A DNA stretch of 62,510 nt, counting the filler, from Hausera hauseri (Eukaryota): the NCBI GenBank assembly GCA_046269625.1. It is 11 parts of 11 records of this genome, joined end to end, with 100 filler letters (N's around TTAATTAATTAA, not from the genome) between each part and the next. Parts side by side here need not be neighbours in the genome. Positions count along the whole stretch, not along the records: positions 40,312 to 45,431 come from JBJURY010329826.1; 10 more parts are not named here. One strand, 5' to 3'. Shown here one piece after another: positions 1-62,446 of the stretch (positions are counted from its first letter, which is position 1; the number at the start of each line of letters is the position of its first letter). The notes under the pieces were generated by a model that saw nothing but the letters and a program-made list of their open reading frames with translations, ran no database searches and was not told where the DNA came from. The position numbers were made by a program, and so were the translations under genes.

Positions 1-85
1 ATGGCAAACCATAACGTAGAACAAGTGATTAAGTCAAAAGCTGATTTCACTCTCCCAATTAGAAAAGTTTTCAGGCAAAGAAGAT

Positions 86-4805: not shown

Positions 4806-5726
4806 AGGCCTGAAATAATGACTGACATAAATGGGTACCCAATGATTGCTCTAATAGACACAGGATCAACAACCACAATAATGGGAAGAAACCAATTGCC
4901 CCTGGAACTAGTAAAGAAACTGAGAAAACCCTCCGAGACGTTAATAAACGTCGAAGCATTTGGCACGGAAGAGAAGATAAGGACAGTCCTCGACGCCAAA
5001 GTTACAATATGTATTCAGGTAATTAAACACACCGTAAGGGTGGCAGAACGTTTAACAAATGAAATATTAATTGGATGTGATATCTTGAATCAGTTGGAAG
5101 ACGCATATATCGACTTAAGCACAGGTCAAATAAGGAAATTTAATACGAAACAGCATGATGGAGCGGTGTCATTGATAAAAGATATTGTAATTCCACCACG
5201 TTCCGAAATAATAGTATCTGAAAAAATAGAAGGCAAATCTCTCGGTAAAAACGTATATTTCGAACCATCCATAGTAACCATGGAAAAGTATGAAATACTG
5301 ATAGCACCTCATATAGACAGAATAAGAGACGGAAAAATCCATTTACGGATTTGTAACACGGGACGAAAAGAAATGAAGCTAAAAAGGAATACTAGAATGG
5401 GATGCGTAATGGTGGTGGAGGATACGCTAGAAAGTTCTAGGGAAGGCACTAATTCTGTCATCTCAGAAGTAGATACAATTGAAAAAATGATGGCAGCAAA
5501 ATTAAGTAACGCAATAAGCAAAGTGAAAACAAAAGACAAGACTAGTGTTATTAATTGGGATGAGAAATTACAGGATTCTAAAGTGTTGACAGACGAGGAA
5601 AAGAATAAGTTACAAGAACTCCTAATAAAAAATAATGATCGCTTTAAACAAAATGACTATGACTTAGGAGTTATGAACGTTATACAACATTCTATTAAAC
5701 TAAAAAACGGGCAAGATAAACCAATA
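4806..5726 (+). CDS. pol: Aspartic protease, dUTPase-like linker and RT N-terminus, in frame with the glycoprotein (ORF 2610-5726)
   Basis: ALIDTGSTTT (DTG at 4857-4865), ILIGCDIL, IVIPPRSEIIV..LRICN, DLGVMNVIQHSI. Confidence 0.9.
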
Positions 5727-10420: not shown

Positions 10421-10588
10421 GTCTTTTTCATTTTCCTTACGTGAGACTTACCCTACCCTACTTTTGTATTCCTACCTCACCAGTGTGTTTTTGCCTACTT
10501 AGCTCTCTACAAACAACAGAGTATCACTGCAATGGATTCCTGCACACCAGCATACAAGGAAGTGATTGACACCTCCACATGACTAACA

Positions 10589-13500
10589 TTGCATAAGCTG
10601 ACTTTAGAAAGTCCAGAACTTTCTGAAGTACCACCCACCTTGTGGGCGCAAACAAAATATGATGTGGGATTGATAAAGGATCAAATACCAATTCAAATCA
10701 CTCCTAAAACATCTTACAGGCCAAAAATACCACAATACCCTTTAAAACCTGAAGCCATTACAGGCATTACACCTGTATTCCATTCACTTTTGGAAGCAGG
10801 GGTAATTGTTCCTTGCCCAACCTCACCTGTTAGGACACCGATCTTTCCTGTGAAAAAGATCCGCTCCACCCCTCCCGATGACTGGCGTTTTGTGCAGGAT
10901 CTCAGAGCGGTGAACGCTGCGGTTCAAGCACGTGCACCCATCGTTCCTAATCCATATGTGATCTTATCACAAATACCGCCTGGCTCCACCCATTTCTCAG
11001 TCATCGATTTAGCTAACGCCTTTTTTAGTGTTCAGGTTCATCCTGATAGCCAATTCTGGTTTGCATTTGAGTTTTTGGGTAAATCTTACACTTTCACAAG
11101 ACTCTGCCAGGGGTACTGTGAATCACCAACCATTTTCCACCAGGCCTTAAAAGACAGCCTGGCAGGTTTCAGTCTTCCACCTGGGTGTGCATTGCTTCAA
11201 TATGTTGATGATCTACTTCTTGCAGCTCCTGATGAGCAATCATGTAAAACACACACAGTCCGCCTTTTGCAATATCTTGCGGCTGAAGGTCATAAGGTCT
11301 CATTGTCCAAACTTCAGTTTGTGTTGCCATTAGTTACATTTCTGGGCCACAAAATCTCAGCAGCAGGAAGAGAGCTTGCAGCTACACGAGTTGCAGCCAT
11401 TGTGTCTCTACCACTTCCTGAAACTAAAAAACAATTGATGTCTTTTCTGGGGTTATGTAGTTATTGTCGACATTTTATACCAAACTACGCAGAGCATGAA
11501 GCACCCCTGCGCGCCGTTTGTCATGCTAAAGGCCTTCTAATGAGCTCTAAATTGACTTGGACTCCATCTGCATTGACTGCATTTGAGACCCTGAAATCTC
11601 AATTGCAAAAAGCACCCACCCTAGGTATTCCTAATCCAACACGCCCATTTGTGCAGGCTGTGGATGAAAGGGGTGGATGTATGACGTCTGTTTTGATGCA
11701 AAAGCATGGTGACCGGATGAAACCAGTGGCATACTTCTCATCAAAACTTGACCCAGTTGCTGCTGGACTTCCTCTTTGCTTGCGCGCTGTGGCAGCAGCT
11801 GAAAAATCTGTTTTGGCAAGCAGAGACATCGTGGGGTACGCAGATTTGACCTTGCTCGTGCCACACGCTGTCACTCAAATTCTAAATGAACAAAAAACCG
11901 CTCATTTATCGACCGCTCGTTGGCTGAGATATCATTCTACTCTTCTTGACATGCCCAACATCACCATTCAACGTTGCAACGTCTTAAATCCAGCCACTCT
12001 TTTACCTTCTCCTACTGAAGGAACTCCACATGACTGTTTAGCTGAACTTGAAGTGCTCTGCACTCCAAGACCTGACTTACAACAAGAACCTCTTGAGCAT
12101 CCCGACTGGGAACTTTTTGTAGATGGCTCATCTTCACGTGACCCTCACACTGGTTCTATTAACAGTGGTTATGCTGTCGTCACTTCCTCTTACACTGTTG
12201 AGGCTAATTCTTTACCACCTTGTTCAGCCCAAGCTTGTGAACTGATAGCGCTTACCAGAGCTTGTCAACTTTCTGAAAATAAATCTGTCAACATCTTCAC
12301 AGATTCCAGATATGCTTTTGGCATTGTCCACGACTTTGGAGCATTGTGGAAGCAACGTCACTTCCTGCGCTCTAACGGACAACCAATCTTAAATCATAAA
12401 CTTGTTTCTAATCTTCTTGAAGCCATCACTCTTCCCTCACACATTGCTGTAGTGAAATGTGCAGCACACACAAGAAACACTGACTATGTTTCTAAGGGAA
12501 ACGCAGCCGCTGACATTGCAGCTAAATCTGCTGCTACGTCACTTCCTGCTGCTACTTCACTTCCTGTCAATGTAAACTCTCTGTCACTCATGGTTCATTT
12601 ACCACCCAAGAACACAGAAACACCTGACTCATTCACTCTTGCAGACATGCAGAAACTTTCTACTCCCGCAGAAAGAGCAGCGTGGAAACGCTTGGGGAGT
12701 ACATTCACTGATGGCATCTGGCTAGGCCCTAACAACAATCCTTGTCTACCTCACCATTTCTTTCATTCCTTTGCAGTGTTGATACATGGGCGTGACCATG
12801 TATCCAAAGGGGGGATGCTGAGGGACATTGACACTCATTGGTTTACTGTGAAATTTTTGAAAGTTGCTGAACAATACTGTAACTCATGTCTGATCTGTGC
12901 AACTCACAATGTGTCCAAACCAATAAAAACTACTGCAACAGGTGCACACAAAACAGTGACCGCGCCTTTTCAACATCTAATGATTGACTTCATTGAACTG
13001 ACTCCTGTTCAAAACAAAAAATACTGTCTGGTTGTCGTGGATATGTTTTCAAAATGGGTTGAAGTTTTCCCCTCAAAACATAACACAGCAAACACAGTAG
13101 CCAAAATTTTGTTAACAGAAATCATTCCACGATGGGGAATTCCCCAAAAAATCTCAAGTGATAATGGTTCTCATTTTGCTAATGAAATCATGACTGAAAT
13201 ATCAAAAACATTGAACTTTGACCTAACAAAACATTGTGCTTACCACCCACAGAGTGGGGGAGCTGTTGAACGTGAAAATGGTACCTTGAAGAACAAGTTG
13301 GCCAAACTTTGTGAGGACACACAACAGAACTGGGTTACATGTTTGCCCGTCGCTGTAATGTATATGAGAATGCGAAGGAGGGCTAAGTTTAACCTTAGCC
13401 CTTTTGAAATTCTTTTTGCAGCTCCACCCAATCTTGGCATTGGACCAACGAGAGATCCCACCAGCGATCTAAAACACTGTGATCATAACATGATGAATTA

Positions 13501-13810
13501 CTGTATTGAACTAACCAAACATTTAACATCCATAAGGTCTCAGGTCCAGGGAGGACTTCCTGCTCCTGCGCAGAAACCTTTACATTGTATTTCTCCTGGA
13601 GACTTTGTTATGCTTAAATGTTTCAGGAGAAAGCGCTGGAACTCCCCCAGGTGGACAGGACCGTTCCAAGTACTGCTGACCACCCACACGGCTGTGAAGG
13701 TGGCTGAAAGAGCAACTTGGGTCCACGCCAACCACTGCAAACTCTTCAGGGGGACCAAACCAACCACGGAGGAAGGACCGGGAGAGCCAAATCCACACCA
13801 AGCACCTTAG
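10589..13810 (+). CDS. pol: Retroviral Pol (RT, tether, RNase H, integrase), fish epsilon/ERV1-like; the TTG start is not a real start
   Basis: WRFVQDLRAVN, IDLANAFF, LLQYVDDLLL, FVDGSS..SAQACEL..NIFTDSRY, H..H..CLIC, IDFIEL..SDNGSHF..GAVERENG, WTGPFQV; 1073 aa with no stops. Confidence 0.97.
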   Translation: MHKLTLESPELSEVPPTLWAQTKYDVGLIKDQIPIQITPKTSYRPKIPQYPLKPEAITGITPVFHSLLEAGVIVPCPTSPVRTPIFPVKKIRSTPPDDWRFVQDLRAVNAAVQARAPIVPNPYVILSQIPPGSTHFSVIDLANAFFSVQVHPDSQFWFAFEFLGKSYTFTRLCQGYCESPTIFHQALKDSLAGFSLPPGCALLQYVDDLLLAAPDEQSCKTHTVRLLQYLAAEGHKVSLSKLQFVLPLVTFLGHKISAAGRELAATRVAAIVSLPLPETKKQLMSFLGLCSYCRHFIPNYAEHEAPLRAVCHAKGLLMSSKLTWTPSALTAFETLKSQLQKAPTLGIPNPTRPFVQAVDERGGCMTSVLMQKHGDRMKPVAYFSSKLDPVAAGLPLCLRAVAAAEKSVLASRDIVGYADLTLLVPHAVTQILNEQKTAHLSTARWLRYHSTLLDMPNITIQRCNVLNPATLLPSPTEGTPHDCLAELEVLCTPRPDLQQEPLEHPDWELFVDGSSSRDPHTGSINSGYAVVTSSYTVEANSLPPCSAQACELIALTRACQLSENKSVNIFTDSRYAFGIVHDFGALWKQRHFLRSNGQPILNHKLVSNLLEAITLPSHIAVVKCAAHTRNTDYVSKGNAAADIAAKSAATSLPAATSLPVNVNSLSLMVHLPPKNTETPDSFTLADMQKLSTPAERAAWKRLGSTFTDGIWLGPNNNPCLPHHFFHSFAVLIHGRDHVSKGGMLRDIDTHWFTVKFLKVAEQYCNSCLICATHNVSKPIKTTATGAHKTVTAPFQHLMIDFIELTPVQNKKYCLVVVDMFSKWVEVFPSKHNTANTVAKILLTEIIPRWGIPQKISSDNGSHFANEIMTEISKTLNFDLTKHCAYHPQSGGAVERENGTLKNKLAKLCEDTQQNWVTCLPVAVMYMRMRRRAKFNLSPFEILFAAPPNLGIGPTRDPTSDLKHCDHNMMNYCIELTKHLTSIRSQVQGGLPAPAQKPLHCISPGDFVMLKCFRRKRWNSPRWTGPFQVLLTTHTAVKVAERATWVHANHCKLFRGTKPTTEEGPGEPNPHQAP

Positions 13811-14010
13811 GTTTCACCTAGGCTGCCAACTATTTCAGCACGCTCAACATCATCGGATGGTTGAGACTGCAGTGAAGGAGCACCTACGGGACCACACTCA
13901 CAGCTCAGGCTGCGGTCTACTGTGAGGCGGCGGGTACCAAGACCCACAACTAGGTTGAGGAAGCTGAGCCCAACCCCTCTGTCCTCTCTTTTATCCGAGA
14001 TTAGTATTCT

Positions 14011-14026
14011 TCCTTTACCTTTACAG
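14011..14026 (+). promoter_or_regulatory. Probable env splice acceptor
   Basis: Pyrimidine tract TCCTTTACCTTTACAG ending 25 nt before the env ATG. Confidence 0.55.
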
Positions 14027-14051
14027 CCAAAGAAACATTAAAAGATTCATC

Positions 14052-15824
14052 ATGAACTTGCTGGATAAACACCCATGGAAAACCATGCTGGTTTTAGGAC
14101 TACTCGCAGGTTTGACCTGTGGCATTATTTTTCTATGCAGACACTTTTGTTTATTTCCAGGAGAAGGACCCTGTTACGACCAAGAGACTCCTGCCCTACA
14201 TCGTGCCCGACGTGACCTAACTCAACGTGACCTAACCCACTTGCTAAAACCAGACCATGAACATCCCCATGACTATAGTACTAACTTGTGGTGGCAACTA
14301 ATGAATAAAACAGCCCATGAAGGTAACACGACTGACTGCTATGTATGTGCCCACATGCCCTACTCTACCCATAACTCAGGCCTCCGACCCTTGTCAATTG
14401 ACCCCAACCACCAAGCTTGTTTGTATGCTCTTAGCACCCATCCAGGTATGGTCGAATCCTGGCATGCTAGATCTTACACCAAACCAATCCCTTCTGGTAT
14501 GTTCAATAAAGACACTGATCTCTATCGAAGGTTAGCCATGAGTTCATTAATAGGTAATTTTTCTTCTCAATGTGATAACAATGATCTTGTGCCACTCCCA
14601 CAGACCACCATTAGCTTACCAGAGATCATGAATCTAGCCCATCTAAAACCAGGAAGTTTAGGAATTTTTGTATTCAATAATGGAACAAACCACATGGGAT
14701 ATCTCCCATGGAATCTGTGTGAAACAATTTACACCTTTTGTAATATTCCAAAATCCCAAGACAAAGACAGTCTCCAATATTTAGAGTGTTGTATTTGTAA
14801 ACATAGACATGAACGCCCAAGCCTTAAATTAAATCTTTGGAATGGAGTGGGTAAATACTCTTATGACCCCTGTAAGGAAGCTGATAATACATCTGATTGT
14901 TCAACCCTACTAATTAAACGTTCATTCAACCTCACAAAACTATCTAACGGCCGACATGACACAACTCAATGTAGTCTATATGTACCAGGAAATAAAGGCT
15001 CTCGAGTATTGACTGATTGGTATTTTCTGTGCGGCCATAAAGCATATATTGCACTCCCACCAAAGTGGGGAGGCCTTTGCGTTTTAGTCCAATTATCTAA
15101 CCCTATGTTTGTTTTAAGGAAACCTTCACAGAACCAAAGGCAACGACGGTCAACCATGCCTCATGTAACGAGATGGGGTGGACTGACCACGAGTACAGGA
15201 GTTCCGTGGGAATTCAGAATTTGGAATGGGGGTGAAAAATTCTTCCAATCACTATTCCCCTGGATAGGGGTAGGTGAAGTTCGTGATCATGTAGAAGTTA
15301 ACAGATACGCTCTCCTTCGGCTAATCAATGACACTTACATACTGGGAAATGGTACCCAAAATGAATTAAGAGCCATAAGAAACATGGTTATTCAAAATAG
15401 AGTTATTCTTGATCTTTTGACAGCCTCTCAAGGGGGCGTGTGCAAAATTATAGGCCAAGCTTGCTGTACTTTTATTCCAGATGAGACTAGTGACGGAGGA
15501 GCAATTCATGACGCCCTACAAGACCTGACCCAATTAAAAGAATATGTAGAAAGCGGCACCAAAGGAGCACAGGCCTTTGACTTTTGGGCCTGGCTGACCT
15601 CGGGATCTTGGTGGCAAATTCTCTTAAAGATATGTGCACCTCTTATCACCATTTTGATTTTGTTTTGTTTATTTTTCTTATGTATTGTTCCATGTATCAG
15701 ACACATGATGACAAAAGCCTTTACTGGAGTAACTTTGACCTCTGGCCCTGACACTGACAATGACATGCTTAACCCAACTAAGAAAATGTTGCCTAGAACC
15801 TCCACCACTTTTGTGTTAAAATAA
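14052..15824 (+). CDS. env: Gamma-type retroviral Env (SU+TM), uninterrupted
   Basis: Hydrophobic leader, CYVC, furin site RQRR, immunosuppressive-domain-like IQNRVILDLLTASQGGVC, CX6CC (CKIIGQACC) and a TM helix. Confidence 0.96.
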   Translation: MNLLDKHPWKTMLVLGLLAGLTCGIIFLCRHFCLFPGEGPCYDQETPALHRARRDLTQRDLTHLLKPDHEHPHDYSTNLWWQLMNKTAHEGNTTDCYVCAHMPYSTHNSGLRPLSIDPNHQACLYALSTHPGMVESWHARSYTKPIPSGMFNKDTDLYRRLAMSSLIGNFSSQCDNNDLVPLPQTTISLPEIMNLAHLKPGSLGIFVFNNGTNHMGYLPWNLCETIYTFCNIPKSQDKDSLQYLECCICKHRHERPSLKLNLWNGVGKYSYDPCKEADNTSDCSTLLIKRSFNLTKLSNGRHDTTQCSLYVPGNKGSRVLTDWYFLCGHKAYIALPPKWGGLCVLVQLSNPMFVLRKPSQNQRQRRSTMPHVTRWGGLTTSTGVPWEFRIWNGGEKFFQSLFPWIGVGEVRDHVEVNRYALLRLINDTYILGNGTQNELRAIRNMVIQNRVILDLLTASQGGVCKIIGQACCTFIPDETSDGGAIHDALQDLTQLKEYVESGTKGAQAFDFWAWLTSGSWWQILLKICAPLITILILFCLFFLCIVPCIRHMMTKAFTGVTLTSGPDTDNDMLNPTKKMLPRTSTTFVLK

Positions 15825-26133: not shown

Positions 26134-27094
26134 GTAATTTTCGGGTTTTTATTTATTACTCGTTGACTGGAAATTTGCCATCCACAACATTCATAAAAAT
26201 ATGATAATAAAAATTTAAGGTATTCAGAAAGTATTTGGTGATGACAATTGATGTTTAACTATTCAGTAAATGCATTGAAAATATTCAAATTTTTAAATTT
26301 AAATTTTCTGTATTGATTAAATGAATTANNNNNNNNNNNNNNNNNNNNNNNNNNNNNNNNNNNNNNNNNNNNTTAATTAATTAANNNNNNNNNNNNNNNN
26401 NNNNNNNNNNNNNNNNNNNNNNNNNNNNCAGTCATGCAAATTTTAACTGACAATACATTAATTAAAATTACACCAATCCCTGCTAATCCCTTTAATGTTT
26501 GATTTTGTATTGTTGGGATTGTATTTTTTAATGTGTGCAATGTATTATCTTATACGTTCTGTCAATTATGATGATTCTGACGTCTGCACAAATAAGTATA
26601 TATACGTGAATAATTTACACTCTCACTCATTAGACATTATCTGATAATACTCGCGTATAACTATTCAGTTGTAGTAAGTGTTGTTTATTACTTTCATTGT
26701 ATTTGCTTCATAATTTTTGTTCTTTATAAAACCAACATTTATTTTTAGAGTATCAGTATTTCTTTTTAGTCCTAAGTAATATAAGTAATTAACTAAAGAA
26801 ATCAAGTAATATATTGGAACAATTGCCGACCAGGTCAAACCTACCTGACGGCAGCCCGTTTATATCTAAATAACCAGTGTCAAGTAATACAGTAGAACGT
26901 AAAGTTTGAAAAAGCCTTATTGGCAGTCGTCCACGACACATTACCATACAGGATAGGGATAGGTAAGGAACCTTGTCTCTGTCTAGACTCAACTGCGCCT
27001 AAATAAATCCAGAATCAATTTTGTTCGTCCTATTAATTCTATTCCACGGTAAATAAGGCCTCTCTCAATATAGAATTAATGAGAACTGAACAAC

Positions 27095-27112
27095 TGGCAC
27101 CGTGACCCGGGA
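27095..27112 (+). promoter_or_regulatory. Probable primer-binding site (tRNA-His-like) after an LTR ending at ~27092
   Basis: ..GAACA-AC-TGGCACCGTGACCCGGGA upstream of gag; imperfect match to TGGTGCCGTGACTCGGA. Confidence 0.5.
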
Positions 27113-27255
27113 TAAAGAATTTGCTTTAGAGAACCAGAAGAAAAGAAGAACTCAAAATTACGACAAGAAAAGGTATCCAGTATCAGTTAACTCATAATAC
27201 AGCAGAACAACCTTTTGGATTAGAGTTTTTAAATAATCTAAGCGAAGAAGAAGAA

Positions 27256-30200
27256 ATGACAAATCAGAGTGCTAATATAATGGAGCATGTGATTCAGTCG
27301 AAAGCTGAATTCACCTTGCCCATGAAGAAGTTCTTAGGTAAGGAGGACGTGCAAGATTTTATTATGTAGTACGAAGTGTACTCAAAGAGCTTTGGTTGGA
27401 TTGACCAAAAGCGAACAAAAAGATTGCCTCTTCAATTAAGAGGGACTGCTTTGACAATTTATTTCCAAATTCCCGATGAAGACAAGAAGAATAGGAAAGG
27501 AATCAAAGAAAAACTGCCTCAGAAATTCTTTATGGATCCCTCTGGAAAGGGTAGAATAGAAGAATTTATAAGAAGAAGGCAACGTAAAGATGAAACAGTC
27601 CAGGATTTCGTCTGTGCACTGGAGAAGTTAGCCGCCAGAGCATATCCTGACGTTACTAGAAGAAATAATGCATTACTAGCCCAATTCCAATACGGGTTAG
27701 AAGAGAAGTTACAAACAATAATCTTGCAAGCAGATCCACTTACATTTCAAGACTCCATAAGAAAGGCGCGAAAAGCCGAACAAGATGACGAACTATATAA
27801 ATGGAATAATCCTAGAGGTTATAATAATTATGATAAACAAAGGAATAGTAATAAACAAAAAAATTATGAACGTTATAACAGAAGCAGAAGTCCATCCCAA
27901 ACATCGGCCACAGAAGCAGAATCTGATGCGGAAAAGAAGGTCCGGTTTAAATTAAAGAACGACGGTGAAAAAGCGAGTATTAAGAAGAAGTCTTTCCTAA
28001 AGATGAAAGAAACTTACCTAATATAGACGCTGAAGGAAGGTTAAAATGTTTTAATTGTAACAAATATGGTCACATAGCAAAAGCATGCAGATCACAAGAA
28101 AGGGAATCCTCAAAGCCTTATAAGCAAAAGAAAAAGGAATATACATCAGCCACATCGCACGAGTCATCTGATTAAGACTATGAAACAGAAGAAAGTGAAC
28201 ATGAAAAGAAGAATAAGAAGAAGGAAAGTGTGAATTATATTAATGATATACTATCTCAACGTATAAGAACTTAACTAGACATGGAGGTAAGAGATTATAA
28301 AACACAGCAGAAGAGATTAAAAGGAAAATAGTATTTACGTAGTGGAAGAAAAAACAAAAGGCAGAAAGCAGCGGCAAGGAGGAAAGAAAAGTAATAAAAA
28401 AATAATTGACAATATCGAATCAAGAGAAACTTCTGTGGAGAAAAGTGATGTAGAACAGAAGAAAAGAGGACGAAAGAATAGTGAGTTTACATCGTAAGAA
28501 AATGAAAAGAATGTCCCACCTACAAAAATTTGTGATAAAACCGTTATTGAACAAGTGATACACGATATAGAAGTAGACTTAGATGCTGAAGATGATCTTA
28601 TCCAAGCAGTAATTGCTATAAACCCTGAAAATATAATAAACGTAAATCAAGCGACGAGCACAATATTAAAGTTAATAGAAAATAAAGTATCTACCGATAA
28701 GATAAACGAAATACTATTTCAGCTATTATTAGTCGCCCACGATACGAGTCCAATAAAAGACATAGAACGAACAATATCGGCTAAAGCAGCTGAAGAGTAA
28801 AAAGGAAAAAACGAAACAGTAAGAATAACATTAAAGAAAGGAAACCAAGATATAAGGGTTATAAGAATGAATGAAACGGACGATGTATTTACATTACGAG
28901 AAAAGATTGGAGAACTAGAACCGTTTTATAAGGAAAAGACATATGGATTAAGCTTCTATGGCAGAACACTATACAGTTACGACAATTTGTTACGAGTGGG
29001 ATGTAGCAGTGAAAACTATAACCCAATTATGATAAGAGAGAGATACACTCCGATGCAAGAGCAGAAGCAACGATAGAGAATATAATAAGGGAACTGGAAT
29101 ATCAAGAGGTTGATGGATAACCATTAGGTGATACACAGGATGTTACGGTACAAACAGAAGCTCGGATGAGAGGGAGATCAAAAGGAAAAAAAATAAGCGA
29201 CTTTCGAAACAGAAAGGATCGAAACGAAGAAATAGTACGGTGATTGCTATTAGCAGGAACGGATACAACGCCAGAATCTGTAGATATAGATCCATTATTA
29301 AGAACGTTACTAGCCAAATTACATACGCCATTTGCATCGTTTGATATGCAAGTGGTAATTCCTGACTAATTGTTTCAGACGTTATATAACGGTATGCTAA
29401 AAATTAGCAGGCAGTTTTACGAAAATATTGGTGAAAAAAAAATTAATGAAATACATGAGCAAGATATATTAGAAAAGATGTTCTCAACAGGAATCACGCG
29501 AGAAAAAGTACAAACAGCTATAGCTTATCTATTATATAAAGTGATTGTGATCAATTACCAAACCCAAAATTTGGAAGAAATTGAGCGAAATATTAAAGCA
29601 GCGGTTACGGTTTTAAAGGACACGTTAGAAAATTGGGTCCAGTGTACAGGCGGGTGGTTATCAAGTCTTACCAAAAATGTAAGAACAAAAGGATACGGAG
29701 GACAAACAGAGATACCAATCTCAAACTTACACACACCAAGGCAATGCATAACAGGAATTACGATGATGGGGATCTTTCAGTTAATTTTAATAACATCGTT
29801 GCTGATACCCAAGACAATGGGAATAGTAGCATACGATTGTTCGAAACCTAAGGAAGGACAGAAATATTCCTTAGTTGATCTAGAAAAATGCCCCAAAGCT
29901 GACCCAGAACAATTAACGACGACCAGCGGTCACAGATATTGGATTTATTAGGAGTTTGAATTTATAAAAGTCAAGGTCAGGGAATGTTATGTAAAGAAAT
30001 CTTTCTTCCTGTTTAATTGTGCGTATTATTCCGGAAACTGCAATAATTGAACCAACAACACCATTNNNNNNNNNNCATAAAAGCCCAAAGCAAGGAATAT
30101 TATGTGAAGAAATCTTTTTTTTCTGTTCAGTTGTGCGTATTATTCCAGAAACTCTGCAATAATTGAACCAACAACATCATTTGAGCCGATAATACTATCG

Positions 30201-30551
30201 CGCGCCGAATGTCAAGATGTCTTTAAAATCGGAGTTATAACGATACAGAATGCACAAATAACAGCCGTAAGGAATAAGATAAAATATACTCAAATTTTTA
30301 GAGCCGGAAGAACAGATAAAACGATGGAAGGCACGAAGGATTATTCGACTCACAAACCAAACTCATGACGACAATGAGCGAGTGCGAATATGAAAGCGGC
30401 AAATGTGATACCGGCGAATCAAAAATGACTTGGGAAGTAACCGCGAATAGATGTCATTTGATCCTACAAAAGGAAGGAAAATTCAATAAGACAGTAGGAA
30501 AGACAGCCGAGAAAGAAACAACAACGTACAAGGAGGGCATCAAAGAACTAA
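27256..30551 (+). pseudogene. Second copy of gag - spacer - glycoprotein N-terminus (more decayed)
   Basis: Colinear with 1-3250; CFNCNKYGHIAKAC at ~28047; ILITSLLIPKTMGIVAYDCSKPKEGQKYSLVDLEKC. Confidence 0.9.
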
Positions 30552-40311: not shown

Positions 40312-40493
40312 CGATCGGATCGAATACATTGACGACAGTCGGATGTACGTACAGCGCAATCCAATGTTTGCCCGGTAACGACAAACTGTGTGGATTGACG
40401 ATGAAACATCCGCCACCATTTTGTCGTAAGTCATGCGGCACACAGTCCAGCGGAAACACTGCGGAATTTCACACCACAGAGCAGTTTTCCATA
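40312..40493 (-). pseudogene. Polinton/adintovirus maturation cysteine protease (adenain-like), N-terminal part
   Basis: VFPLD..FIVN....PGKHWIALY....VFDP, directly downstream of the capsid gene. Confidence 0.8.
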
Positions 40494-40599
40494 GTGACTG
40501 AGTTCAGTTAAGCTAAACGTAAAACGTGATGCAATTATAAAAGTAATAATGGTAATAAATTACTTCATGGCTCAAACAGGAGGAAGAAGAAGGTTTTAT

Positions 40600-41780
40600 T
40601 TATAAAATGACCGTTCCGTTTTTCGTTATTTCAACCTCGGCATTAAATACATCGTAAATATACATCACAGTAGACTGCTCCAATGCTTTAGCAAAATAAA
40701 CCTCCAGTCGCAGGATTTCTTGCTGAGGTGGTTGAATCTGTACAGCGTTATAATTTGGAGCCAGGACAAAAGTGAAGAATGGATATGTGGACTTGAACAA
40801 ATCCATCGATATGCCATCGTCGACATTTTTGTTTATCAAACCCATGTTGCGCATGATAGATTGCATATATGTGCAAACATAATCGCCGGTCTCGAAATAC
40901 TGCTTGTATGTGTCAACGAAATCCGCATTCTTAACCAAACTAATGTATTTCATATTGGTATGGGTAAACGTTTCGGAATCTGAAGTATAACTACCCGTTT
41001 GTTTAACAGTCGTTTGAAATGTATCGAGTAAAAATTTCGGCAATCGCATGTCGCCAATCAGTATGTCCTTGTAAAACGTTGTTGAACCTTTGGGTATGGT
41101 GTAAAAGACCAGTTCTCTGCGTTGTAATGGGTAACAGGCATTTTGTGTTTCCAAGTCCAATCGATGTCCCATGAGCACATATGGTTTTACCTTTACACGA
41201 CGTACGTATAATCGTGCCTCGATAATTTTCAGTATAAATTTGAGATTTGCAACTGCGGTTTTCGAACAAAAGACACTGTCGCTGCGTGTGAGCCGAATCA
41301 CGGCTTTTACTTTGTGCAGCAGGTATTTTGGCTGATCGAAAAAGTCAAAGTACAGCTGTCCACACATGGTAAGCGCTTTTGATTCTGCCACCCATGCCTG
41401 AGAGTTTGCTGCAGTTGCGTCATATCCGATGGTTTTCTTCAAATGAGTCGTTTTCGTGCCTGCACTGTAATCCAGAGCCGTTTCAATGAGTGCTTTAATA
41501 CTGTATGGACTGGTGTTGCCTTCAATTTTGACACTGTTTAGAGTCAGTGAAGCCTACTGGAACAGTGTGAGGAAAAGTAATTGGCCGGTGTGACAGTGTT
41601 TGTTGCAGCGAGAACCGTTGATGCATCCTTTGTAACAATGATTTTTACATAGAGTAGCGGTTGAAACCTAATCAACGGAGTAGATTTCTTCAAATGCCGC
41701 ATTGTCAATAACAATTTGTGGTGCGCTATTGTCAAATTGCACTATTCAGATTTTGCAGATGCAATTTGTCTGCCTGTCTG
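40600..41780 (-). pseudogene. Polinton double-jelly-roll major capsid protein (frameshifted 5' part)
   Basis: KSE.. N-terminus, GQLYFDFFDQPKYLL..V.IRLTRS, LKIIEARLYVRRVKV, LRLEVYFAKAL...IY. Confidence 0.85.
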
Positions 41781-42131
41781 TCAATCGAAAATCGTACGAC
41801 GACGACGTTTGTTTATAGTTGAAATGCTAGCTGATGTACCATCACGTTTTCTCAAGCCACAACCAGCGAATTGATTTTTAACCGATTCAACGACTCCCGA
41901 TGCAGTGCTTTTTATTTCTGTGTTCCTCAGTGATGGTAAAATCGATTTGTTTTCATATAGTACGTCCTGTGCTGTTTTTGTTGCCACGGCTCCAATATGT
42001 TTCAACACCGAAAATGCTAAGCTTGCCGATGTGCACAACCATCCGGAGGCATACTGTTTACCAACGAAATACGGCAGTTCACCGCTATGCTGAGATGTAC
42101 TGTAAATGGAAACGATTTCATAATCAATCAT
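41781..42131 (-). CDS. Polinton core/PZ-like protein
   Basis: G..PYFVG.QY.SGW motif and a basic C-terminus KRRRRTIFD, between the minor and major capsid genes. Confidence 0.65.
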   Translation of the reverse strand: MIDYEIVSIYSTSQHSGELPYFVGKQYASGWLCTSASLAFSVLKHIGAVATKTAQDVLYENKSILPSLRNTEIKSTASGVVESVKNQFAGCGLRKRDGTSASISTINKRRRRTIFD

Positions 42132-42990
42132 GGTTTCGACGGAAATGAAGAGTTAGGGAGATTGTGGTACCATACGCAAATTCAATAAGGTAGCCCGTGT
42201 CACACAGCATATTCACTTCGACATTGTTTATAGATGTAGATGCCACTGGCAGGCACACTGGATTATGAAGATTGACAATGACATTGTCGCCAGCAGCATA
42301 CTTTCTGCTTTCCAGATAACCTGCATGTAGTAGCAGTACACGTACTCCACCGACCAAAATCGATTCGGTAACGTTCGCGTAAATGCACATTTGACTTAGA
42401 CATTTGAGTTTAAGTGTTGCAACATGTGCTGTTTTCGTATTTGATGCCTCAAACCGCTGTTTTTTCTATTAGAAAATCGTGTGGTATAATATATAAGCGG
42501 AATACTGATTTTGACTTAGTCCACTTTACTTTAATATCGGATTCCGTATTGGATGAAAGGTACAATTTCTCACCAATTATAACATGTCCACCTAGACGTA
42601 GACGTTTTGAGTTTACATTGACTTATTGAAAACCCCATGCCTAGGCATCAGCTATAGATTTATAATGCATTTCATTGGGATTTCGATGCATTCGTTTCAT
42701 AAGGTGGTTTGAAAAATATGCATAGGCCGAGAAATGTTGTCGCGAATAATTGCGAAGAGTGCACCGGTTATTGCGTCGGATTGTCCTTAAGCGACTTGAA
42801 ATAGGCTTCGTTTCTTGGCGGGCAAAGTAAATACCACTGTTCTGGTGTATTGTCATTGGTGAAAATGTAAATGTGAATTCCGTAAAAGCCACATCCCAAG
42901 CTCCGTGGCGTAAATCGACCGCTTGGTCCAAGTGTATGGTAAACTGTTTAGCGGTATTGTCATTATCTTTATGTTGTTATAATGATCTGT
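42124..42990 (-). pseudogene. Polinton minor capsid (penton-like) protein, fragmented
   Basis: NTA..FTIHLDQAVDL..AWDVAFTEF and IYANVTES.LVG...LL...YLPV..I..IEV..DTG.LI.F..G...LTLHFR. Confidence 0.75.
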
Positions 42991-42995
42991 TACTA

Positions 42996-43235
42996 TCAAG
43001 TGCCAAGTAACTGCTGCTGCTGCTCATTGAATCTGTGATGCCAAAATCCAACTCGGTGCAGAGTATCCGTGCCACTTGACGAAATATTGTTTATTCGAAC
43101 CTTTGCCACGTGAAAGTAGAATTTCCTGAATACGATACACACCGGGTTTTTTCCAGTAGTAATGCATAATTCCTTTATTATGTACCGGGCATTATCATCT
43201 TGGAAAACTTCAATATCTAAAAATCCTGTCGCCAT
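42996..43235 (-). pseudogene. Small DEDD-exonuclease-like Polinton ORF
   Basis: FLDIEVF....YIIKELCI start motif. Confidence 0.45.
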
Positions 43236-43322
43236 TACTTATCATGCACATAATCATTTTTTGTTTATAAAAAATCAAAAAAACTAACTATTAATATTTA
43301 ATCATCATTACAATAATTAAAC

Positions 43323-43786
43323 TTAGGTGGTTTTGTCCATATCACCAAAGCCAAATTCTTTGCGTTCATTTAGTGTCGATTCATTGAAACATAACAATCT
43401 CCATTGTTCCGGTGACATTACACTGAATTCTGTCTCTTCACAGCGAAGAAAAACAATTTATACAATTGCATTGTCTTTCGAAAAGCATGCGTTTCCCCGA
43501 ATTGGTTTTCCAGCAACAACTTAATATCACCACGAAAGTCTGAATCAGTGACGCCGCCCACAACCGTCAGTCCGGGCTTTGCCAGTCCATTTTTCGATAA
43601 AAGTTGGCCGTAGTAACAGGGTGGAATCACCGATCAAATCACAGTTGTTATGCACTTGATTGTACTGTCCGGAATTGTCGTATTGACATTGGAAAACACA
43701 TCGTAGCCTGCACTGTTTGCTGTAACACGTCTCGGTACAAAGGTATTTTTGTCTGTTTGGATAATCTTTACATCATTTATTATCAT
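43323..43786 (-). pseudogene. dut: dUTPase (stop plus frameshift)
   Basis: SAGYDV, GQLLSKNGLA, GGVTDSDFRGDI and R.EFGFG correspond to trimeric dUTPase motifs. Confidence 0.88.
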
Positions 43787-44589
43787 TATTCTTATGCCAA
43801 TATTATAATTACACGTATATTTATACCCGTTAATTCGGTTGATAAAAGAAGAATAAGAAGAACGATAAAACAACAAAATTTATTGATAATTACAATGTGC
43901 TTCAGCTACACGCCAAATCGGGCTTTTGATATCGACTTTTCCTTGTATCCTTGCAAATCAATATTCAGTCGACACTTTAAATCATCACCATCGCGTACAT
44001 GAAACATTTCGCCACCGATAAAAGCAAACAATTTCGTTTTCCGAGCCGGTAAGACCACACATTGCTGTTGCACGGTCGTTTTGTTCAACTTTAAATCCGC
44101 GTTTAATTAATACAAAGCATCAAAAAGTTTATCCAAATTTTCACCCGAAAGCCGTTTTACACTATAGCTGTACTCGGGTACGCATAGAGACACGGGATCA
44201 TTTAATGAAATTAGTACGGGCGTTTGCAGAAGATGCATTTCATACGACGTTTGGCGTGTTGGCTGTTTTAATTTTCGTTTACGTATTCCAATCATTGCAT
44301 TTCGTATTTTTAACGTTGGTTTTGCTGTTGCTGCTGCTGATGATTTCTGAGCAAGCTCCTGTTTCGTTTCCAGATAATCACACGGTTTTTCTAATTGTTG
44401 GACAGGTTCCAGCAGTTTGACATTAGAGTTGTCCTTTTTGTAGCCAAACAGCCATGACCAATCTGAACTTTCATTACTTTCATAATCGTCATGGAGTAAA
44501 ATCGTTTTGTTGTCGTCGTCTCCCATGGTAGTAATGTTTGAATGAGCATAAGAATGGTATTTATAGTTTGCTGTTGTGCAATGTACATT

Positions 44590-45065
44590 ATTTTCATTCA
44601 CTAAAACATTTATGTGGTTTTCAATTTGATTAATAATCGGTTCATAGTGTGCTGTCCGAATACCGAGTACAACAATTTTTCCACTTCTAAACACATTGAT
44701 ACAAAGTGGGCGAAACGATATCAGTCTTAGTGCAGAAAACAGTTCGGGTTTGTACGTACATTCAGCAGTGGCCATTGTTAATTTGTACAGATTAATTGCT
44801 TGGTGGTAGTCTAACTGAGTCGTTACCGTTATTGATTGGATTGGGTTAATGACAATTCCGAATGGTAGTAGTTCACTGTTACTATCAGCTGTAATTGGTT
44901 TTCAACAACCCATAATACGACACTTCCGTGATTCAAATACAATGCATATGAAATCTGGTGGACATTTGAAAACATACTGCCTTGGCGTCCATTGAATAAA
45001 GGTAGTGCGTTAATGTCATACTCGGTTACATGTCCGCGATAGTTAATATTAGTAGTGAAAATGGG
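44590..45065 (-). pseudogene. TATA-binding-protein-like gene with both repeats; frameshift near 44985 and stop at 44902-44904
   Basis: Repeat 1: NINYRG..PRQYVF..CIVFESRKCRIMG. Repeat 2: IQSITVT..INLYKL..YKPELFSALRL..PLCINVFRSGKIVVLG. Confidence 0.75.
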
Positions 45066-45094
45066 AGTTCTGTTTCACTTTCTGGAGGTGTGAG

Positions 45095-45295
45095 CGTCGA
45101 TAAATCGATAGTGCACATATCCTAATCGATAGTGCACACTGTGTACTATCGATCGGTAGTGTGCGAGGCACCGTTGCTAAGCACACTTTTGCATATTTCA
45201 CAAGTCAATTGCTGCACATATCAAAATTGATCGAATCGATCGAGACAAAGTGCTAGTCGATAGTGCACGTCAATGCGCATCGATTGGTGCATATA
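45095..45295. repeat. Cluster of ATCGATAGTGCAC direct and inverted repeats with a 29 bp hairpin
   Basis: Copies at 45104, 45125 and 45257; near-perfect palindrome at 45125-45153. Confidence 0.7.
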
Positions 45296-45531
45296 GCATG
45301 TGCGCAGCACATGTGCAAGTGTGCCAAAATCAATAATATCTGATTTCCGATATTCCCAATATTGATGATTGGCACCCGGAACCGGGTGCAATCGAAAGCA
45401 CACATGATGCACTGTGTGTATGTGGAGTTATNNNNNNNNNNNNNNNNNNNNNNNNNNNNNNNNNNNNNNNNNNNNTTAATTAATTAANNNNNNNNNNNNN
45501 NNNNNNNNNNNNNNNNNNNNNNNNNNNNNNN

Positions 45532-55888: not shown

Positions 55889-56535
55889 AGGTGATGTTGT
55901 TTCTACATTTGTTTCGTTTTCTACATTTGTTACTCTTTGTTATGTAATCATCGACGAATTGACAATGTTTCATCTCGTCGAAGTACTTCATCATGACCAC
56001 AACAATCCGTATTTTGTATATCCCTTGGTTCGAGATGTGATATAATGTTCTGTCAAAATGAAAGTATTTATCGAATAGTTAGTCTATAACCTACAATTGA
56101 TAGTCTCAAATCGGCAATCATCTGCCTCAACAAAAAGAAACTGCCACGACAAGAAAATCATTCTACAATTATATTAATGTAGACAATAATAAGAAGGACA
56201 ATGGTGATATTGAGTTATTGATTTTTTTGTAGCTAAGAATTTTGAAATAACAATAGATGTTTTGTCGTTATAATCTTTCGTTTTTTTTGAATGATTTAAT
56301 TTAATCATGCGACACATTTATCAATGAAACAACAGTTGGATTTTCTTTTTTCTTTCATTTATAAATTCTAGATTTGTCACTTCAACTATTGTACGATTAA
56401 AAATGGAACGACACGATATCCAAATATTATGGAGTGAAAATCGACGGGTCCCAATTTTAAAATTGTCCTGCATGCGAGGCTGTATTTGGTTTACAATTCC
56501 CGGCATTTTGTAATCAGCATATATATCATCTGGCA

Positions 56536-58400
56536 ATGTTTAACAAACCAAAGAAAAACATACAGCAAGAATTTCGAGAAATGATAAATATGGCAAAACA
56601 GTTTGTAGCAGAGCAACGACATTCGATAATTGATAAACCAGCTAAACAGCCGATGAAACAAGCAACATCATCTAGTCAGCCGGGTAAACGACTAATGAAC
56701 CGAAATTCAGATAAACCAGCAAGGAAATCGAAAATGGATTCTGTGAAAAAGCTACGACTTAATGTTCAAACGATGATAGCTAATAATTACGTGAACCTTT
56801 GCTTTGACATTTCGCCTGACAAACTCATTTCTACTCGACCATCTGAAAAAATTCTGAATACTGTAGATATGCACACTTCTCGATTTTCTTCGTCTAAGAT
56901 TCAATACGGACTTGAGAGTCTGTTCGCGAATGCTGAAGGTGACTTTAAGGAGGCATATATTTCACATCGAACTGCCCCTTATGAAAAGGTTTACCCTCAA
57001 TCAGTAGCTGATACTTTGCGTGAGCAAGTTGAGAACTTTGCTAAAATGGGTAGTGGTTAAAAGGTAGTAAAAATTCTGAAATACTGTTTTCATATATTTA
57101 GAACAAGTCCACTGCCCTATCTGTCTGGAAAATCCTATCTACCAACACCTGGCGCATTGAAAAATGCTATGGCCGGTGTTAATATAGAGAACCAGGACAA
57201 TTTATGTTTCCTATACTCGATTCTTGCCGTGACCAAATATTCTCTATTTGATAATCATAGATATGGACTTAGCAATTACGTTCCTTGTTTAAGCCAGCTG
57301 AAATATTCTTTGGATGATATGTATATGAAAATATGCAACATAGGTAAATTTGAAAGGCAGAATCCACAGTTGTCAATTATTGTTTTCTTGTTTCACGATA
57401 AGGATAATGTGGACTTCGATGACGATATATTGAAAAATCCATTCGTCGATATTTTGTATAGAAGCAAAAATCCAAATGGTACTGTAGTGAACTTTATGAT
57501 TTTAGAAAATGANNNNNNNNNNGTTGAACATACCATTTAACGGAATGAGAATACAATGTAAACATTGGTGTGAGAAATGTTTGCATGGATTCAGGCTTGA
57601 CACTGCGTATGTTAAGCATTTACCAATGTGCATGTCTTCTTCCAGATGCACAAAATCCAAATAGTACTGTAGTTAACTTGCTGATTTTAGAAAATAATGA
57701 TCATTTTCACTATGTTGCAATTCCCAATCTTAATCGACTGTTAAACATACTGTCTAACGGTATAAGAATTCAATGGAAACATTGGTGTGGAAAATGTTTA
57801 CATGGATTTAGGCTTGACATTGCTTATGCTAAGCATTTACCAATGTGCAAATCTTCTGCCAAATATACGACTTTGTACAAAATGTCCGAAAATGAGTTTT
57901 GAAAGTTTAAGGACTGGACCAAATCTATAAATCCTCCTTTCGTCAGATATGCTGACTTTGAATATGTTCTGTGTCCTGATGATAAAGTCAAGCATATTCA
58001 GTTGTCTGCTGCAGTCGGTCTTTTGCTAGTTTCATCAACGGGTATTGAATATAGACAGTTTGTTGGTGAAAATTCTATCGTTGAGTTTCTGAGTCGTTTA
58101 GAGGAAATTGTGAAAAGCTTGGTTTTCGCCTGGTACGAAAATGCAAAAAACCCAATGATCATACTAACATCAGCTGAATGGTTTCGGTTTAAAAACGCCA
58201 CATATTGTTATCTCTGTCATGAAAGCGGTACGCAATTTGTTCGAGATCGCTGCCATGTTACAGGTAAATTCTTAAGCCAAGCATGTATTAAATGTAACCT
58301 GGCTCGACAGATTAAGTACAATTTACCTGTTATGTTCCATAATTTGCGTGGATATGATCTTAATCGTATTTTAAAACACGCATTAAGTAAATTCGCATGT
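56536..58400 (+). pseudogene. Protein-primed DNA polymerase B (Polinton/adintovirus) N-terminal half with an endonuclease-VII-like insertion
   Basis: GSG(W), NIENQDNLCFLYSILA, HYVAI.NL.RLL, YADFE, CYLC..VRD.CHVTGKF...C..CNL, FHNLRGYD. Confidence 0.88.
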
Positions 58401-58964: not shown

Positions 58965-61900
58965 TTTATTTTAACTTCCAATGTCCATACGCCCAACGCT
59001 TATTTCGCCCCACCCACTTTCGTTTATCATAGTTACATGACAAAGCGACTTTCGCTCTAGTTATTGCATACAGTTGGTGCTCAATTGATCGGATGATCGT
59101 TTGAGACACAAAATCCACTTATTGTCCTCCTTCTTCATAGATACGTCGATAACCACCGTGACCGATTTCCGTCTGTCTCAGCTGAACTCCTTTTGCCCGC
59201 ATTTTCGGTCCACAATCCGTCAGAAGACTGTAGCACTTTGGGCATAGGAATATCCATTCCCTCTACCGAACACGACCTTTGCTTTCATACTTGAAGCAGC
59301 CGATTTTGTTTGTGTTGGCTTTGCTGTTCAATGAATGATACTGTGGGTAATTGACCATGTCATGTAATCCGTCTGCCATCATTTGTCGCAGTAGTTGTTC
59401 ACGATTGACGTTTTTCAGTTTCAAGAAAAAACTATCTGTGTCACCGGCAATTATATTGATCTTACATCCGTCGCCGAACGTTTGCCGACAACGTGACAAA
59501 TTGCGATACTGGAGTTCATGCATCAGCAACTTGCTCGGATCCAATACCAGCCGGTCCAGTACGACTTCTTCTCTGTTTAAAAGCACGGCAACCAATCAAT
59601 CGGCAATGTGCATTAATCGCCGAAACTGTGCCTTGGTGGCATACGTAACCAGTCGCTTTTCCGATTTATATAGGTGCATATTGAGCCGCTTTTTCAGATT
59701 CTCCACTGTTTTCCGTACAGGGAATTGTTTTACATCTTGTAGTGGTCCTTTTCAAACTTTGTACAAGCTGCGGCTGATTCTCAGAATTTCAATCCATATA
59801 CGCCTTGAATATGGAAGCCTGAGTAAATCGGATTGCACGATGAAGCTCTGTGACACGTACATCGAGCTGCATGTGGAACTGTAGCAGACTACAATGGACT
59901 ACGTAATTCAGCTTCGGTTCATGCGTCATGAGCAGCTTTTTTACTTTTGAGCCTGTCGGATATTGGTTAAATCGTGCGACCGGTAAATCGTCCAAAACGT
60001 CATGCAGCTCATTTGGTACCACGAGATAAACCTCCATCAGGTATCCAACTGAGTTTGTCATGTCTGCTGGTGGTAACTTGAGCATTGTGTCGTCCAGATC
60101 TTGTCTGCCAACTACCAATTCGAATGAACCGTACAGCAAGGGTGCGAAAGTGCCCAGACGTACAGGTTATTAATATCAATATAAAACAGTGATAATATAT
60201 CGGTAGCACCGACATGATGCTTGTTGACAAATGTCATGCCACCGCGAATACCAACATCAAACATTTGGTACATTTCTGGGTCTTGCATCCGCTCAATGTC
60301 TCGATCCAGTGACATTAGAGTTGACGCCAAATTCATTCCCGGTATGGAATAAAAGTTGAGTAGCTCCAACCCACTTTCCGCTAGCGCTTTGGTCCAAAAT
60401 GTTTCGAATACATCGGCCAATAAGCAAACGCTCAGTTTAAGATACTGGAGCATGTAATCCAACATGTTTCTACAGCCCAGTTCTGTCCAAGATTCTTGTG
60501 CTCTCTGATATTCATCTTCAGTGATTTCTGTCCATCGCGGCGGTAATTCCTGTGCTGTCGGGAGTCGCTCATATGATGTTGCAAAGTCATATGGAAATAT
60601 GTCTTTGTTACGTTCAATATGTGTTGGGAAACTGCGTTGATGTTATCGGTACACCCGGCAAGGCATTTACCAGCTTCGCCAATAATTCATCGAGTAATTG
60701 CAATAAATCAAGGAACCGTACCTGGCACCGGTTTAAGCGTTCTGACAGGGACAGGTACTTCTCCATTGCTGTTGGGATTATGGACAGTTCCCTGTGCGGA
60801 AATCCGTTGATGGCCGATTTCAGTATGAAAGGTCACCGGTAGGAATGGCCGCACGCGCCTTGTTAAATTGCATGTGTTGCATGCTGCTCCCAGGTATCGA
60901 CTGGTGAAATGATCATGGTCCGGTACGAGCAGTTCCCGTGCATCAAAAGTCAATATTTTGTGGCAGAGGTAGCATTCATCGGTGGCAGCGAAAAGCAGCG
61001 GTTCATATTCGTCTGACCATGTCAAGGGCTTAGTGTTATTGTTACTGTACCACGGTGCGATTTCCGTTTCCTCTATCGTTTCCAACTGTTTCAGGAAATC
61101 GAGCATACAGTTCCAGCCATAAAAAATGTAATATTGCAGTTGTCCGGTGGTTTTTATTGGAACAATCGATATACCGACGGCGATTGGAATGTGCTTTTAG
61201 TCGTATACATTGTGCCGCGGTAGGATTGCCTCGATATCGACATATACCACATATTCCTGACTGCCTGTTTTCGACCAGTTACCGAATCTCAGCTCCTTTT
61301 TGACTGACATGACGTACATTGTTGTCCCTGATAAATTTTGTCTGCACAACGCCACATGTTTTTCCCATGTCGTTTTTGACCTGCGACCACGCAAAAATGT
61401 AGGGTATCATTTACAATTTATACGCTTTTTGATGAATTGGTGGTTATCCATTTTCCGAAGTCTGTCCAAATTGGTTAATGCCACGTAGTTAAATTTATCT
61501 TCTTGCTCCAACAGCACCAAATTTACTGAGCGTCCATTTGGGTTTTGACTGCGATAAATTATATCCACGTGTGGGTTTTTGTATATCTCTTCGCCTGCTG
61601 GTATTTCTACGATTATGTTGTACCGGAACACGTTGACTGCCAGTGTTGTATTACGCCGTTCAAAAGCCGGAATGGTTTTGAGTTTCATCGGCATCCAACA
61701 CTCGTCGTAGTCCAACTCTGAGAAATACTTACTGTACTTCTTTGGACAATTTGCATGACGTCTGGACACTTGATCATACTTCAATATGGCCAGAATGCTG
61801 TAAATAAAGCAGTATTCATCGTTAGTATTTTGTACATTCACTACCGCCAAAGACTGCTTCAAGGATGCAGATGTCGGTATGCATAAACGTCCAGACAGGT

Positions 61901-62446
61901 AAATCATGTCACTCGTCTTGGTCAAAATAAAGCCGAGAGTGACAATCTTTAAAATTCGCCAACCACTGCCATTTTCGATTTTGTTGGCGATATTTTCGTC
62001 AAGATTTTCGCCTACATCGGCAAGAAAATCCTCAGAGTATGTTACGGCTCGATGTGACAGGTACCATTGTTTTCTGTCACCCTGCAGGTTTTAAAATTCT
62101 GCAAGTGGATATATTACACTTTGCAATGGTGTTCTTGGAATTTGGCCACCTCTCTTTCCAACCGGTTACGCACATTAGCGGGTACATCTTTCAATTGCGT
62201 TGCTGTTTTCGCCGAAATGTCCACCTTCATGTCTACGCACGATATTTTCCGGTCATACTTGACAGTAATGAGCGGTTTACGTTCATGCTGCTGCTGCTGT
62301 TTCTGTCTTCTGTTGTTTTGAAAGTATTCGTCAAGGCTTGCTGATGCTTGACGTTTCCTGATGCTTCTTGCTGCTTCCATTAATATTTCCTTTTTGGACC
62401 TCTGAAACTGGTTCATGTGGTCCTTGTGAATGTTGTAGAAGTGCAC
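58965..62446 (-). pseudogene. Near full-length protein-primed DNA polymerase B, heavily decayed
   Basis: VNVQN..CFIYSILA, DHDHFT..YLGAACNTCNL, IRGG, YIDINNLY, GDTDSFF, PKCYS, DKR; the HNLxGYD motif is deleted near 60825. Confidence 0.9.

Follow-up and report, generated by a model that had tools for sequence, protein, structure and literature searches.

A shortened TATA-binding protein (TBP) homologue is conserved across one lineage of Polintons, where its gene is tied to the capsid modules. We describe it from a broken copy in a 62.5-kb stretch of DNA (the window), and that copy is a fossil whose worth lies in the family to which it belongs. Our preferred reading, to which we assign a probability of about 0.6, is that the intact protein (mini-TBP) is made early, binds the box TATAAACA, and brings host TFIIB together with RNA polymerase II to packaging and capsid genes. 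A stronger version, wherein a regulator-proof minimal TBP, having lost helix H2, serves a widespread Polinton lineage as a private late switch that reads TATAAACA and not the host TATA box while directly engaging host TFIIB, is offered more tentatively, at slightly less than even odds.

A decayed element with a TBP-like pseudogene

The window consists of 11 short contigs with N/TTAATTAA spacers between them, and the genuine context of the TBP-like gene is therefore limited to the contig spanning positions 40312 to 45431 (Table 1). The element on this contig is an internally deleted, decayed Polinton derivative in which most genes are broken. It is called internally deleted because an ATPase match was not found anywhere on the contig and because a 40-codon integrase tail abuts a MAEL-like fragment, a junction that marks the deletion. 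The intact ATPase and integrase required of an autonomous Polinton are lacking from this copy. The gene set suggests an animal host.

Table 1. Features of the TBP-bearing contig, in window coordinates.
Feature	Position	Strand	Remarks
Four copies of a 12-nt word	45105..45268	.	three are exact and the fourth, inverted, has one mismatch; upstream of TBP-like gene
Mini-TBP pseudogene	44590..45059	-	start absent, frameshift ~45000, stop 44904-44902; identified by Pfam TBP, P0086 identity, and tree
Canonical TATAAATA box	44558..44565	-	~35 nt before P0173-related gene
P0173-related gene, broken	43883..44526	-	one stop, one frameshift; 49% and 68% identity to P0173
TATAAATA box of dUTPase gene	43825	-	dUTPase sits behind it
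dUTPase gene, stop-interrupted	43421..43825	-	Pfam dUTPase 26.8 bits (cut-off 22), second piece
TATAAACA box	43262..43269	-	before MAEL-like fragment
MAEL-like (DEDDh-fold) gene, first 40 codons	43119..43238	-	matches N-termini of relatives
Integrase, last 40 codons (chromodomain)	43030..43149	-	matches integrase residues 311-350 of relatives at 62-70% identity
Minor-capsid-slot gene, degraded	42136..43024	-	label by synteny
TATAAACA box	42232-42225	-	upstream of 115-aa gene
115-aa conserved gene	41787..42131	-	open frame between the two capsid-slot genes; "PZ-like" in the sequence-only reading
TATAAACA box	41810..41817	-	within last codons of 115-aa gene, before major-capsid-slot gene
Major-capsid-slot gene	40603..41770	-	stops near 5' end; labeled from its synteny and size
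Adenain-type protease	40313..40462	-	cut at contig end; 50-55% identity to relatives

The TBP-like gene is intronless. One of its frames (44901-44110) matches the Pfam TBP family PF00352 at 32.7 bits (E 6.6e-08; cut-off 22.9), and a piece read through the stop as X (44997-44590) gives 32 PDB sequence matches, all of them TBPs (best E 1.6e-08). Among intact relatives the closest, P0086 (149 aa), is collinear with the copy at 70% identity over two frames: its residues 4 to 19 correspond to positions 45050-45000 and residues 20 to 148 to positions 45000-44596 in the other frame, with one stop. No in-frame ATG was found on the contig ahead of the conserved start, the copy departs from the family at several nearly invariant positions, and one of the two acidic positions that contact TFIIB is non-acidic. 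Because of the missing start, the frameshift and stop, and the altered near-invariant positions, this gene is a pseudogene, and no working factor comes from it. Its open frame continues into the downstream gene, which belongs to a separate family (P0173). Single-sequence searches using the window TBP piece recovered zero relatives, and none of the candidates drawn from viral contigs could be confirmed as a locus.

The sequence-only reading had described an intronless two-repeat TBP-like gene on an element with its own basal transcription factor. The lack of introns, the kinship to TBP, and the two repeats all stand, but the first repeat of mini-TBP is truncated and the copy is broken; likewise, the element does bear a TBP homologue, but this copy is dead and the element deleted. 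The co-oriented neighbors named there do share a strand, and the dUTPase scores above its Pfam cut-off, but most of these genes are broken and the capsid labels come from synteny only. That list was also incomplete, having missed the P0173-related gene, the MAEL-like fragment, the integrase chromodomain fragment, and the deletion.

Relatives of the P0173-related gene adjoin TBP in three related loci (L013, L017, and L039). The gene aligns weakly to its locus relatives and has no match in Pfam or Atlas; a single-strand DNA-binding role for its product is a guess. The integrase remnant reaches 20.3 bits against Pfam Chromo, below the cut-off. The 115-aa gene is 45% identical to its relatives, and its family is found in 54 of 70 fetched loci. 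For the major-capsid-slot protein, a protein search returned 41 relatives (best 79%), and alignment to P0003 places two stops in the gene. The proteins in both capsid slots, relatives included, lack any Pfam or PDB sequence match and are labeled by position and size.

Upstream of the TBP-like gene, a short-repeat cluster at 45085-45431 combines four 12-nt words with five ATCGAT sequences. Four of the six window matches of the 12-nt word fall in 45105..45268, and neither the word nor the cluster is present at the matching place in five related loci. Elsewhere in the window, positions 1-5726 and 26429-30551 hold two related Gypsy-type elements that are 71-76% alike in matched stretches; the first encodes gag and then a frame of 1050 aa in which a mononegavirus-type fusion glycoprotein (272 bits) precedes the protease domain. 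Positions 10583-15824 hold a retrovirus-like pol whose integrase tail is of the MLV type and, after it, an env-like frame (TLV_coat, 45.6 bits). Broken Polinton PolB pieces at 56416-58394 and 58969-62105, on two other contigs, are 27-55% identical to the PolB of the fetched loci.

A family of short TBPs in one Polinton lineage

Alignment of the major-capsid-slot protein was used to fetch 70 metagenome loci. These show a Polinton module in which ATPase, integrase, and protease genes are joined by two capsid-slot genes and, on the opposite strand, PolB. Domain matches include DNA_pol_B_2 (48.7 bits) for the PolB of L057, rve (48.3 bits) and Pox_A32 (26.7 bits) in L017, and Peptidase_C5 (32.2 bits) for the protease relative in L033; L013 and L017 have long genes that group with the L057 PolB and for which Endonuclease_7 is the only domain match. 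The lineage, as represented by L013, L017, and L057, therefore has the protein-primed PolB, retroviral-type integrase, packaging ATPase, and adenain protease by which Polintons are recognized. The endonuclease VII-like domain borne by these PolB genes (L013:9122-12391, L017:10209-14105, and L057:13684-17724) recalls the HNH-bearing pPolB2 class described in the available text of 10.1101/2023.08.22.554363. The minor-capsid-slot gene is present in two tandem copies in L015, L017, and L018, and L017 also encodes a ubiquitin-conjugating enzyme.

The MAEL-like gene sits after the protease (L017:9591-10055, with relatives in 17 loci). The structure model of an intact relative has a Maelstrom/DEDDh fold (Z 13.0, rmsd 2.7, 145 residues aligned), in agreement with the "MAEL" that the Fig. 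S2 text of PMC8502044, in the part available, labels on adintovirus maps together with SSDBP and dUTPase. This places a piRNA-pathway-like protein behind a late-type box. As a TFIIB-like partner of mini-TBP the neighbor was rejected on the strength of this model, and the TFIIB family has no match among the locus genes scanned, which are a subset of the ORFs from loci that may be incomplete at their ends.

TBP relatives occur in 8 of the 70 capsid-bearing loci by tblastn and in 9 of 70 by profile, most of the 70 being too short for a test of TBP presence. All three loci that unite ATPase, integrase, capsid genes, and PolB (L013, L017, and L057) have one, as do 8 of the 10 loci that extend far enough on the TBP-bearing side; L002 and L020 have no TBP gene on the side covered. 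The gene is present in other elements, so the sequence-only reading is not refuted on the ground that other copies lack it. All seven locus relatives scored against Pfam TBP reach 46-65 bits. A six-sequence profile matched 585 of 1449 candidate proteins, of which those beyond the 120 listed may include cellular TBPs; the 120 matches listed are 125-193 aa long (median 150). Four TBP matches listed share an unusual longest-sequence size with a capsid match (22064, 20066, 18985, and 16200), an indirect sign of TBP-capsid linkage.

To this family belongs the window copy. A tree of 81 rows, which omits L003 (frameshifted), L051 (a fragment), L035, and most of 264 listed relatives, and which is without the host's own TBP, groups the copy with P0086 and P0104 (99/99), the three falling within a clade that comprises 42 short forms (99/93). 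The short forms are placed among 19 others in which helix H2 is retained, and together the two sets are joined at 100/97; six canonical eukaryotic TBP rows stand apart, where all group labels, outgroup included, are our reading of the sequences. The tree suggests a picture of a single old capture that may have been followed by stepwise shrinkage.

An intronless and broken gene is what would be expected of a one-off retrocopy of a host TBP gene inside a Polinton, an origin that would have refuted the sequence-only reading. To this origin we give practically no credence, short of a host TBP that is itself of this type. The copy is 70% identical to intact short relatives and only 27-33% identical to canonical TBPs in short local matches, the synteny is conserved in other elements, and forcing the copy into the six canonical eukaryotic rows, which were picked after inspection of the tree, is rejected by the AU test (p=0.000172).

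DNA-face residues and an oriented upstream box

A TBP fold is predicted by a structure model of the intact relative P0044, which was built from 120 sequences (pLDDT 96.4). The model retains the two-lobe TBP saddle, has TBPs as its best matches (TM 0.61-0.78 among TBP chains), and superimposes on human TBP with Z 14.1 and rmsd 2.4 over 148 residues; the 149 residues of P0044 cover yeast residues 66-240. The N-lobe lacks helix H2, strands 46-52 and 63-76 having no helix between them, and the H2 region is filled at a median of 9 of 22 positions in relatives versus 22 of 22 in canonical rows. A saddle without helix H2 is thus the predicted fold of mini-TBP. According to the available text of PMC7221094, the basic patch for TFIIA, TAF1, Brf1/2, and Mot1 lies largely on H2, and two C-lobe glutamates (E284/E286 in human numbering) contact TFIIB.

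Residue counts were made over the 120 relatives listed, with yeast numbering taken through P0258, whose alignment to yeast TBP is gap-free. Four phenylalanines of canonical TBP intercalate DNA. Of the corresponding positions, F116, F190, and F207 are invariant (120/120 each), but the F99 position is never Phe, being Pro or Gln by alignment. Both TFIIB-contact positions are kept among the relatives listed (E188 in 120/120; position 186 acidic in 120/120). On the DNA face, the residues fixed in the family are 71 N, 122 R, 124 M, 159 S, 161 T, 194 R, 203 C, and 205 N, and DNA-face residues are the most conserved positions of the family. Among these same 120 relatives, V71 is replaced by N in 115, V122 by R in 119, I194 by R in 119, V203 by C in 120, and L205 by N in 119. 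Positions 194, 203, and 205 are those that alter TATA specificity in yeast TBPm3, as described in the available text of PMC1636458. Most DNA-face changes are common to the short and H2-keeping forms, from which we infer that the rewiring of the DNA face probably preceded the loss of H2.

A candidate target for this rewired face lies upstream of packaging and capsid genes. The hexamer ATAAAC occurs 12-75 nt upstream (mostly 30-45) of the ATPase gene in 9/9 cases, the MAEL-like gene in 13/17, the major capsid gene in 40/55, two small genes in 6/8 and 7/7, the minor capsid gene in 12/20, the protease gene in 12/23, the 115-aa gene in 17/39, integrase in 2/10, and PolB in 1/2, against a coding background of 22/1440 windows. 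Upstream of the TBP genes themselves it is found in 0/7. The motif also precedes a few accessory genes, and its orientation is biased (290 on the coding strand, 51 on the opposite strand). When near-copies were clustered (69 loci into 20 groups), ATAAAC was still the top 6-mer (24/69 versus 260/5799), with the consensus TATAAACA, and the motif preceded major capsid in 9 of 17 clusters. Where it overlaps a coding end, the motif fixes codon choice: Ile-Asn codons spell it in 68/82 cases near gene ends and 38/262 elsewhere, kin sequences being counted. All three TATAAACA sequences of the window lie on the coding strand of the TBP-bearing contig; three in the whole window is not above chance (4.7 expected), and it is their placement alone that stands out. 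On that contig, the P0173-related, dUTPase, and protease genes have canonical TATAAATA instead.

ATAAACA fits the forkhead consensus, and the motif overlaps gene ends, so TATAAACA could be a host forkhead site, a start-site element, or a poly(A) signal that is independent of mini-TBP. This we consider improbable, since the motif is strictly oriented, led by T, and held at a fixed distance. Among 179 upstream stretches, ATAAACA occurs 96 times and GTAAACA once (3 and 1 for the reverse-oriented forms), and TATAAAC occurs 88 times versus 6 for AATAAAC.

Under our preferred reading, the mini-TBP gene would be expressed early from a promoter read by the host. The rewired DNA face of its product would read the TATAAACA box, with a preference for TATAAACA over TATAAAAG expected, and the retained acidic stirrup would engage host TFIIB and so bring in RNA polymerase II. 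Loss of H2 might free the protein from control by TFIIA, TAF1, Brf1, and Mot1. Packaging and capsid genes would then be switched on late, giving a two-stage, early-then-late program. Of the late-promoter role proposed earlier, the matching, oriented motif ahead of packaging and capsid genes is found as such; the role itself, be it activation or host-TBP mimicry, is one that we infer.

Several observations weigh against this reading. The motif is TATA-like, so host TBP or a paralogue could read TATAAACA. It is missing before many genes, including those for the protease, the 115-aa protein, and integrase. The pairing of protein and motif comes from seven loci, and a differing TBP is joined to an absent motif pattern in L057 only, where the TBP (195 aa) keeps H2, differs at the specificity positions, and, in this single case, is accompanied by no motif pattern ahead of the ATPase and capsid genes. 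In L020 the motif is present with no TBP gene within 2.5 kb upstream of the ATPase, where three relatives have one. L057 is a divergent element in which the TBP gene is clustered with a MAEL-like gene and two other genes (L057:11597-13445), and a TTAAG-type word, a candidate alternative motif, lies ahead of 7 of its 18 genes.

In an alternative that we judge unlikely, host TBP or a paralogue reads TATAAACA and mini-TBP is a decoy that dampens host transcription by sequestering TFIIB or occupying host TATA boxes. Retained TFIIB-contact residues together with a lost H2 regulatory surface fit an unregulated competitor, PDB titles show wild-type TBP bound to single-base TATA variants, and the motif of L020 stands without a TBP gene in the stretch covered. 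However, a pure TFIIB sink would need no invariant DNA face, yet this face is the most conserved part of the protein; moreover, selection with yeast TBPm3 disfavored C at box positions 6-9 (available text of PMC1636458), whereas the motif has C7. Highly improbable, in our view, is a role outside transcription, in which mini-TBP binds the element ends or origin for replication, integration, or packaging. Its gene lies beside one that might encode a single-strand DNA-binding protein and beside a dUTPase gene, and the saddle fold is shared with rolling-circle initiators (Z 6.8), but the acidic TFIIB stirrup is retained in 120/120 relatives listed and the motif is enriched ahead of genes rather than at ends.

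A matched factor and promoter box would bear on how Polinton capsid genes are activated and hence on the virus-like behavior of these elements. Should the stronger version hold, we would know of no smaller orthogonal TBP-promoter pair in nature, and it would be direct evidence of a viral early-late program in these elements. Mini-TBP is also a natural test of how much of TBP initiation requires, and it might serve as an orthogonal transcription part.

Comparison with known TBPs

Viral TBPs are already on record from large DNA viruses and herpesviruses. Within a literature coverage that leaves out subscription papers and repeat databases, we found no account of the short TBP family or of the motif. 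The one link that we found between TBP and this virus group is Starrett et al. 2021 (PMC8502044) and its preprint, where "TBP" appears in the Fig. 5 legend, in a section on non-animal datasets, for MELD viruses with adintovirus-like PolB. The label puts a TBP-like gene in a linear DNA virus, midsize and from the same broad group, but it is a legend entry without analysis in the available text, and its comparison with the mini-TBP family is by label. The earlier statement that TBP lies outside the standard Polinton gene set thus needs qualifying, given that such genes are not wholly unrecorded in small linear DNA viruses. The available supplement text carries no TBP label in Fig. S2 and none by short-motif or term search, although its maps, tables, or slides could name the gene. 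The terms TBP and TATA are absent from the available text of PMC11161782, 10.1101/2023.08.22.554363, 10.64898/2026.06.19.733378, and 10.64898/2026.10.13.758929.

Cellular TBP (PDB 1cdw and 1ytb) has the same two-lobe saddle as the P0044 model (Z 13.7-13.8, rmsd 2.5-2.6, 148-149 residues), and mini-TBP shares with it three intercalating phenylalanines and both acidic TFIIB-contact residues. Unlike cellular TBP, mini-TBP is about 26 residues shorter, lacks the N-lobe H2, has a shortened H1 and stirrup, carries a residue other than Phe at the F99 position, and is fixed for polar or basic residues at 71, 122, 194, and 205. Large dsDNA viruses likewise encode TBPs of their own (Ravarani et al. 2020, PMC7221094, whose main text, as available, does not mention Polintons), and these keep the L5.1 Phe and have lost N-lobe regulator signatures. 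Most of them are accompanied by a viral TFIIB, and C.L3.2 is kept in ~40%, whereas in mini-TBP C.L3.2 is acidic in 120/120 relatives listed and no TFIIB-like gene was found among the genes scanned. The viral TBP of beta- and gammaherpesviruses (ORF24, BcRF1) is a TBP mimic and functional analogue that reads late promoters using host RNA polymerase II, and BcRF1 gives a weak fold match (E 2.8e-03). In the available descriptions, ORF24 and BcRF1 are large proteins that act in a six-member viral complex and contact RNA polymerase II directly, whereas mini-TBP is a stand-alone saddle of 150 aa whose putative partner is host TFIIB.
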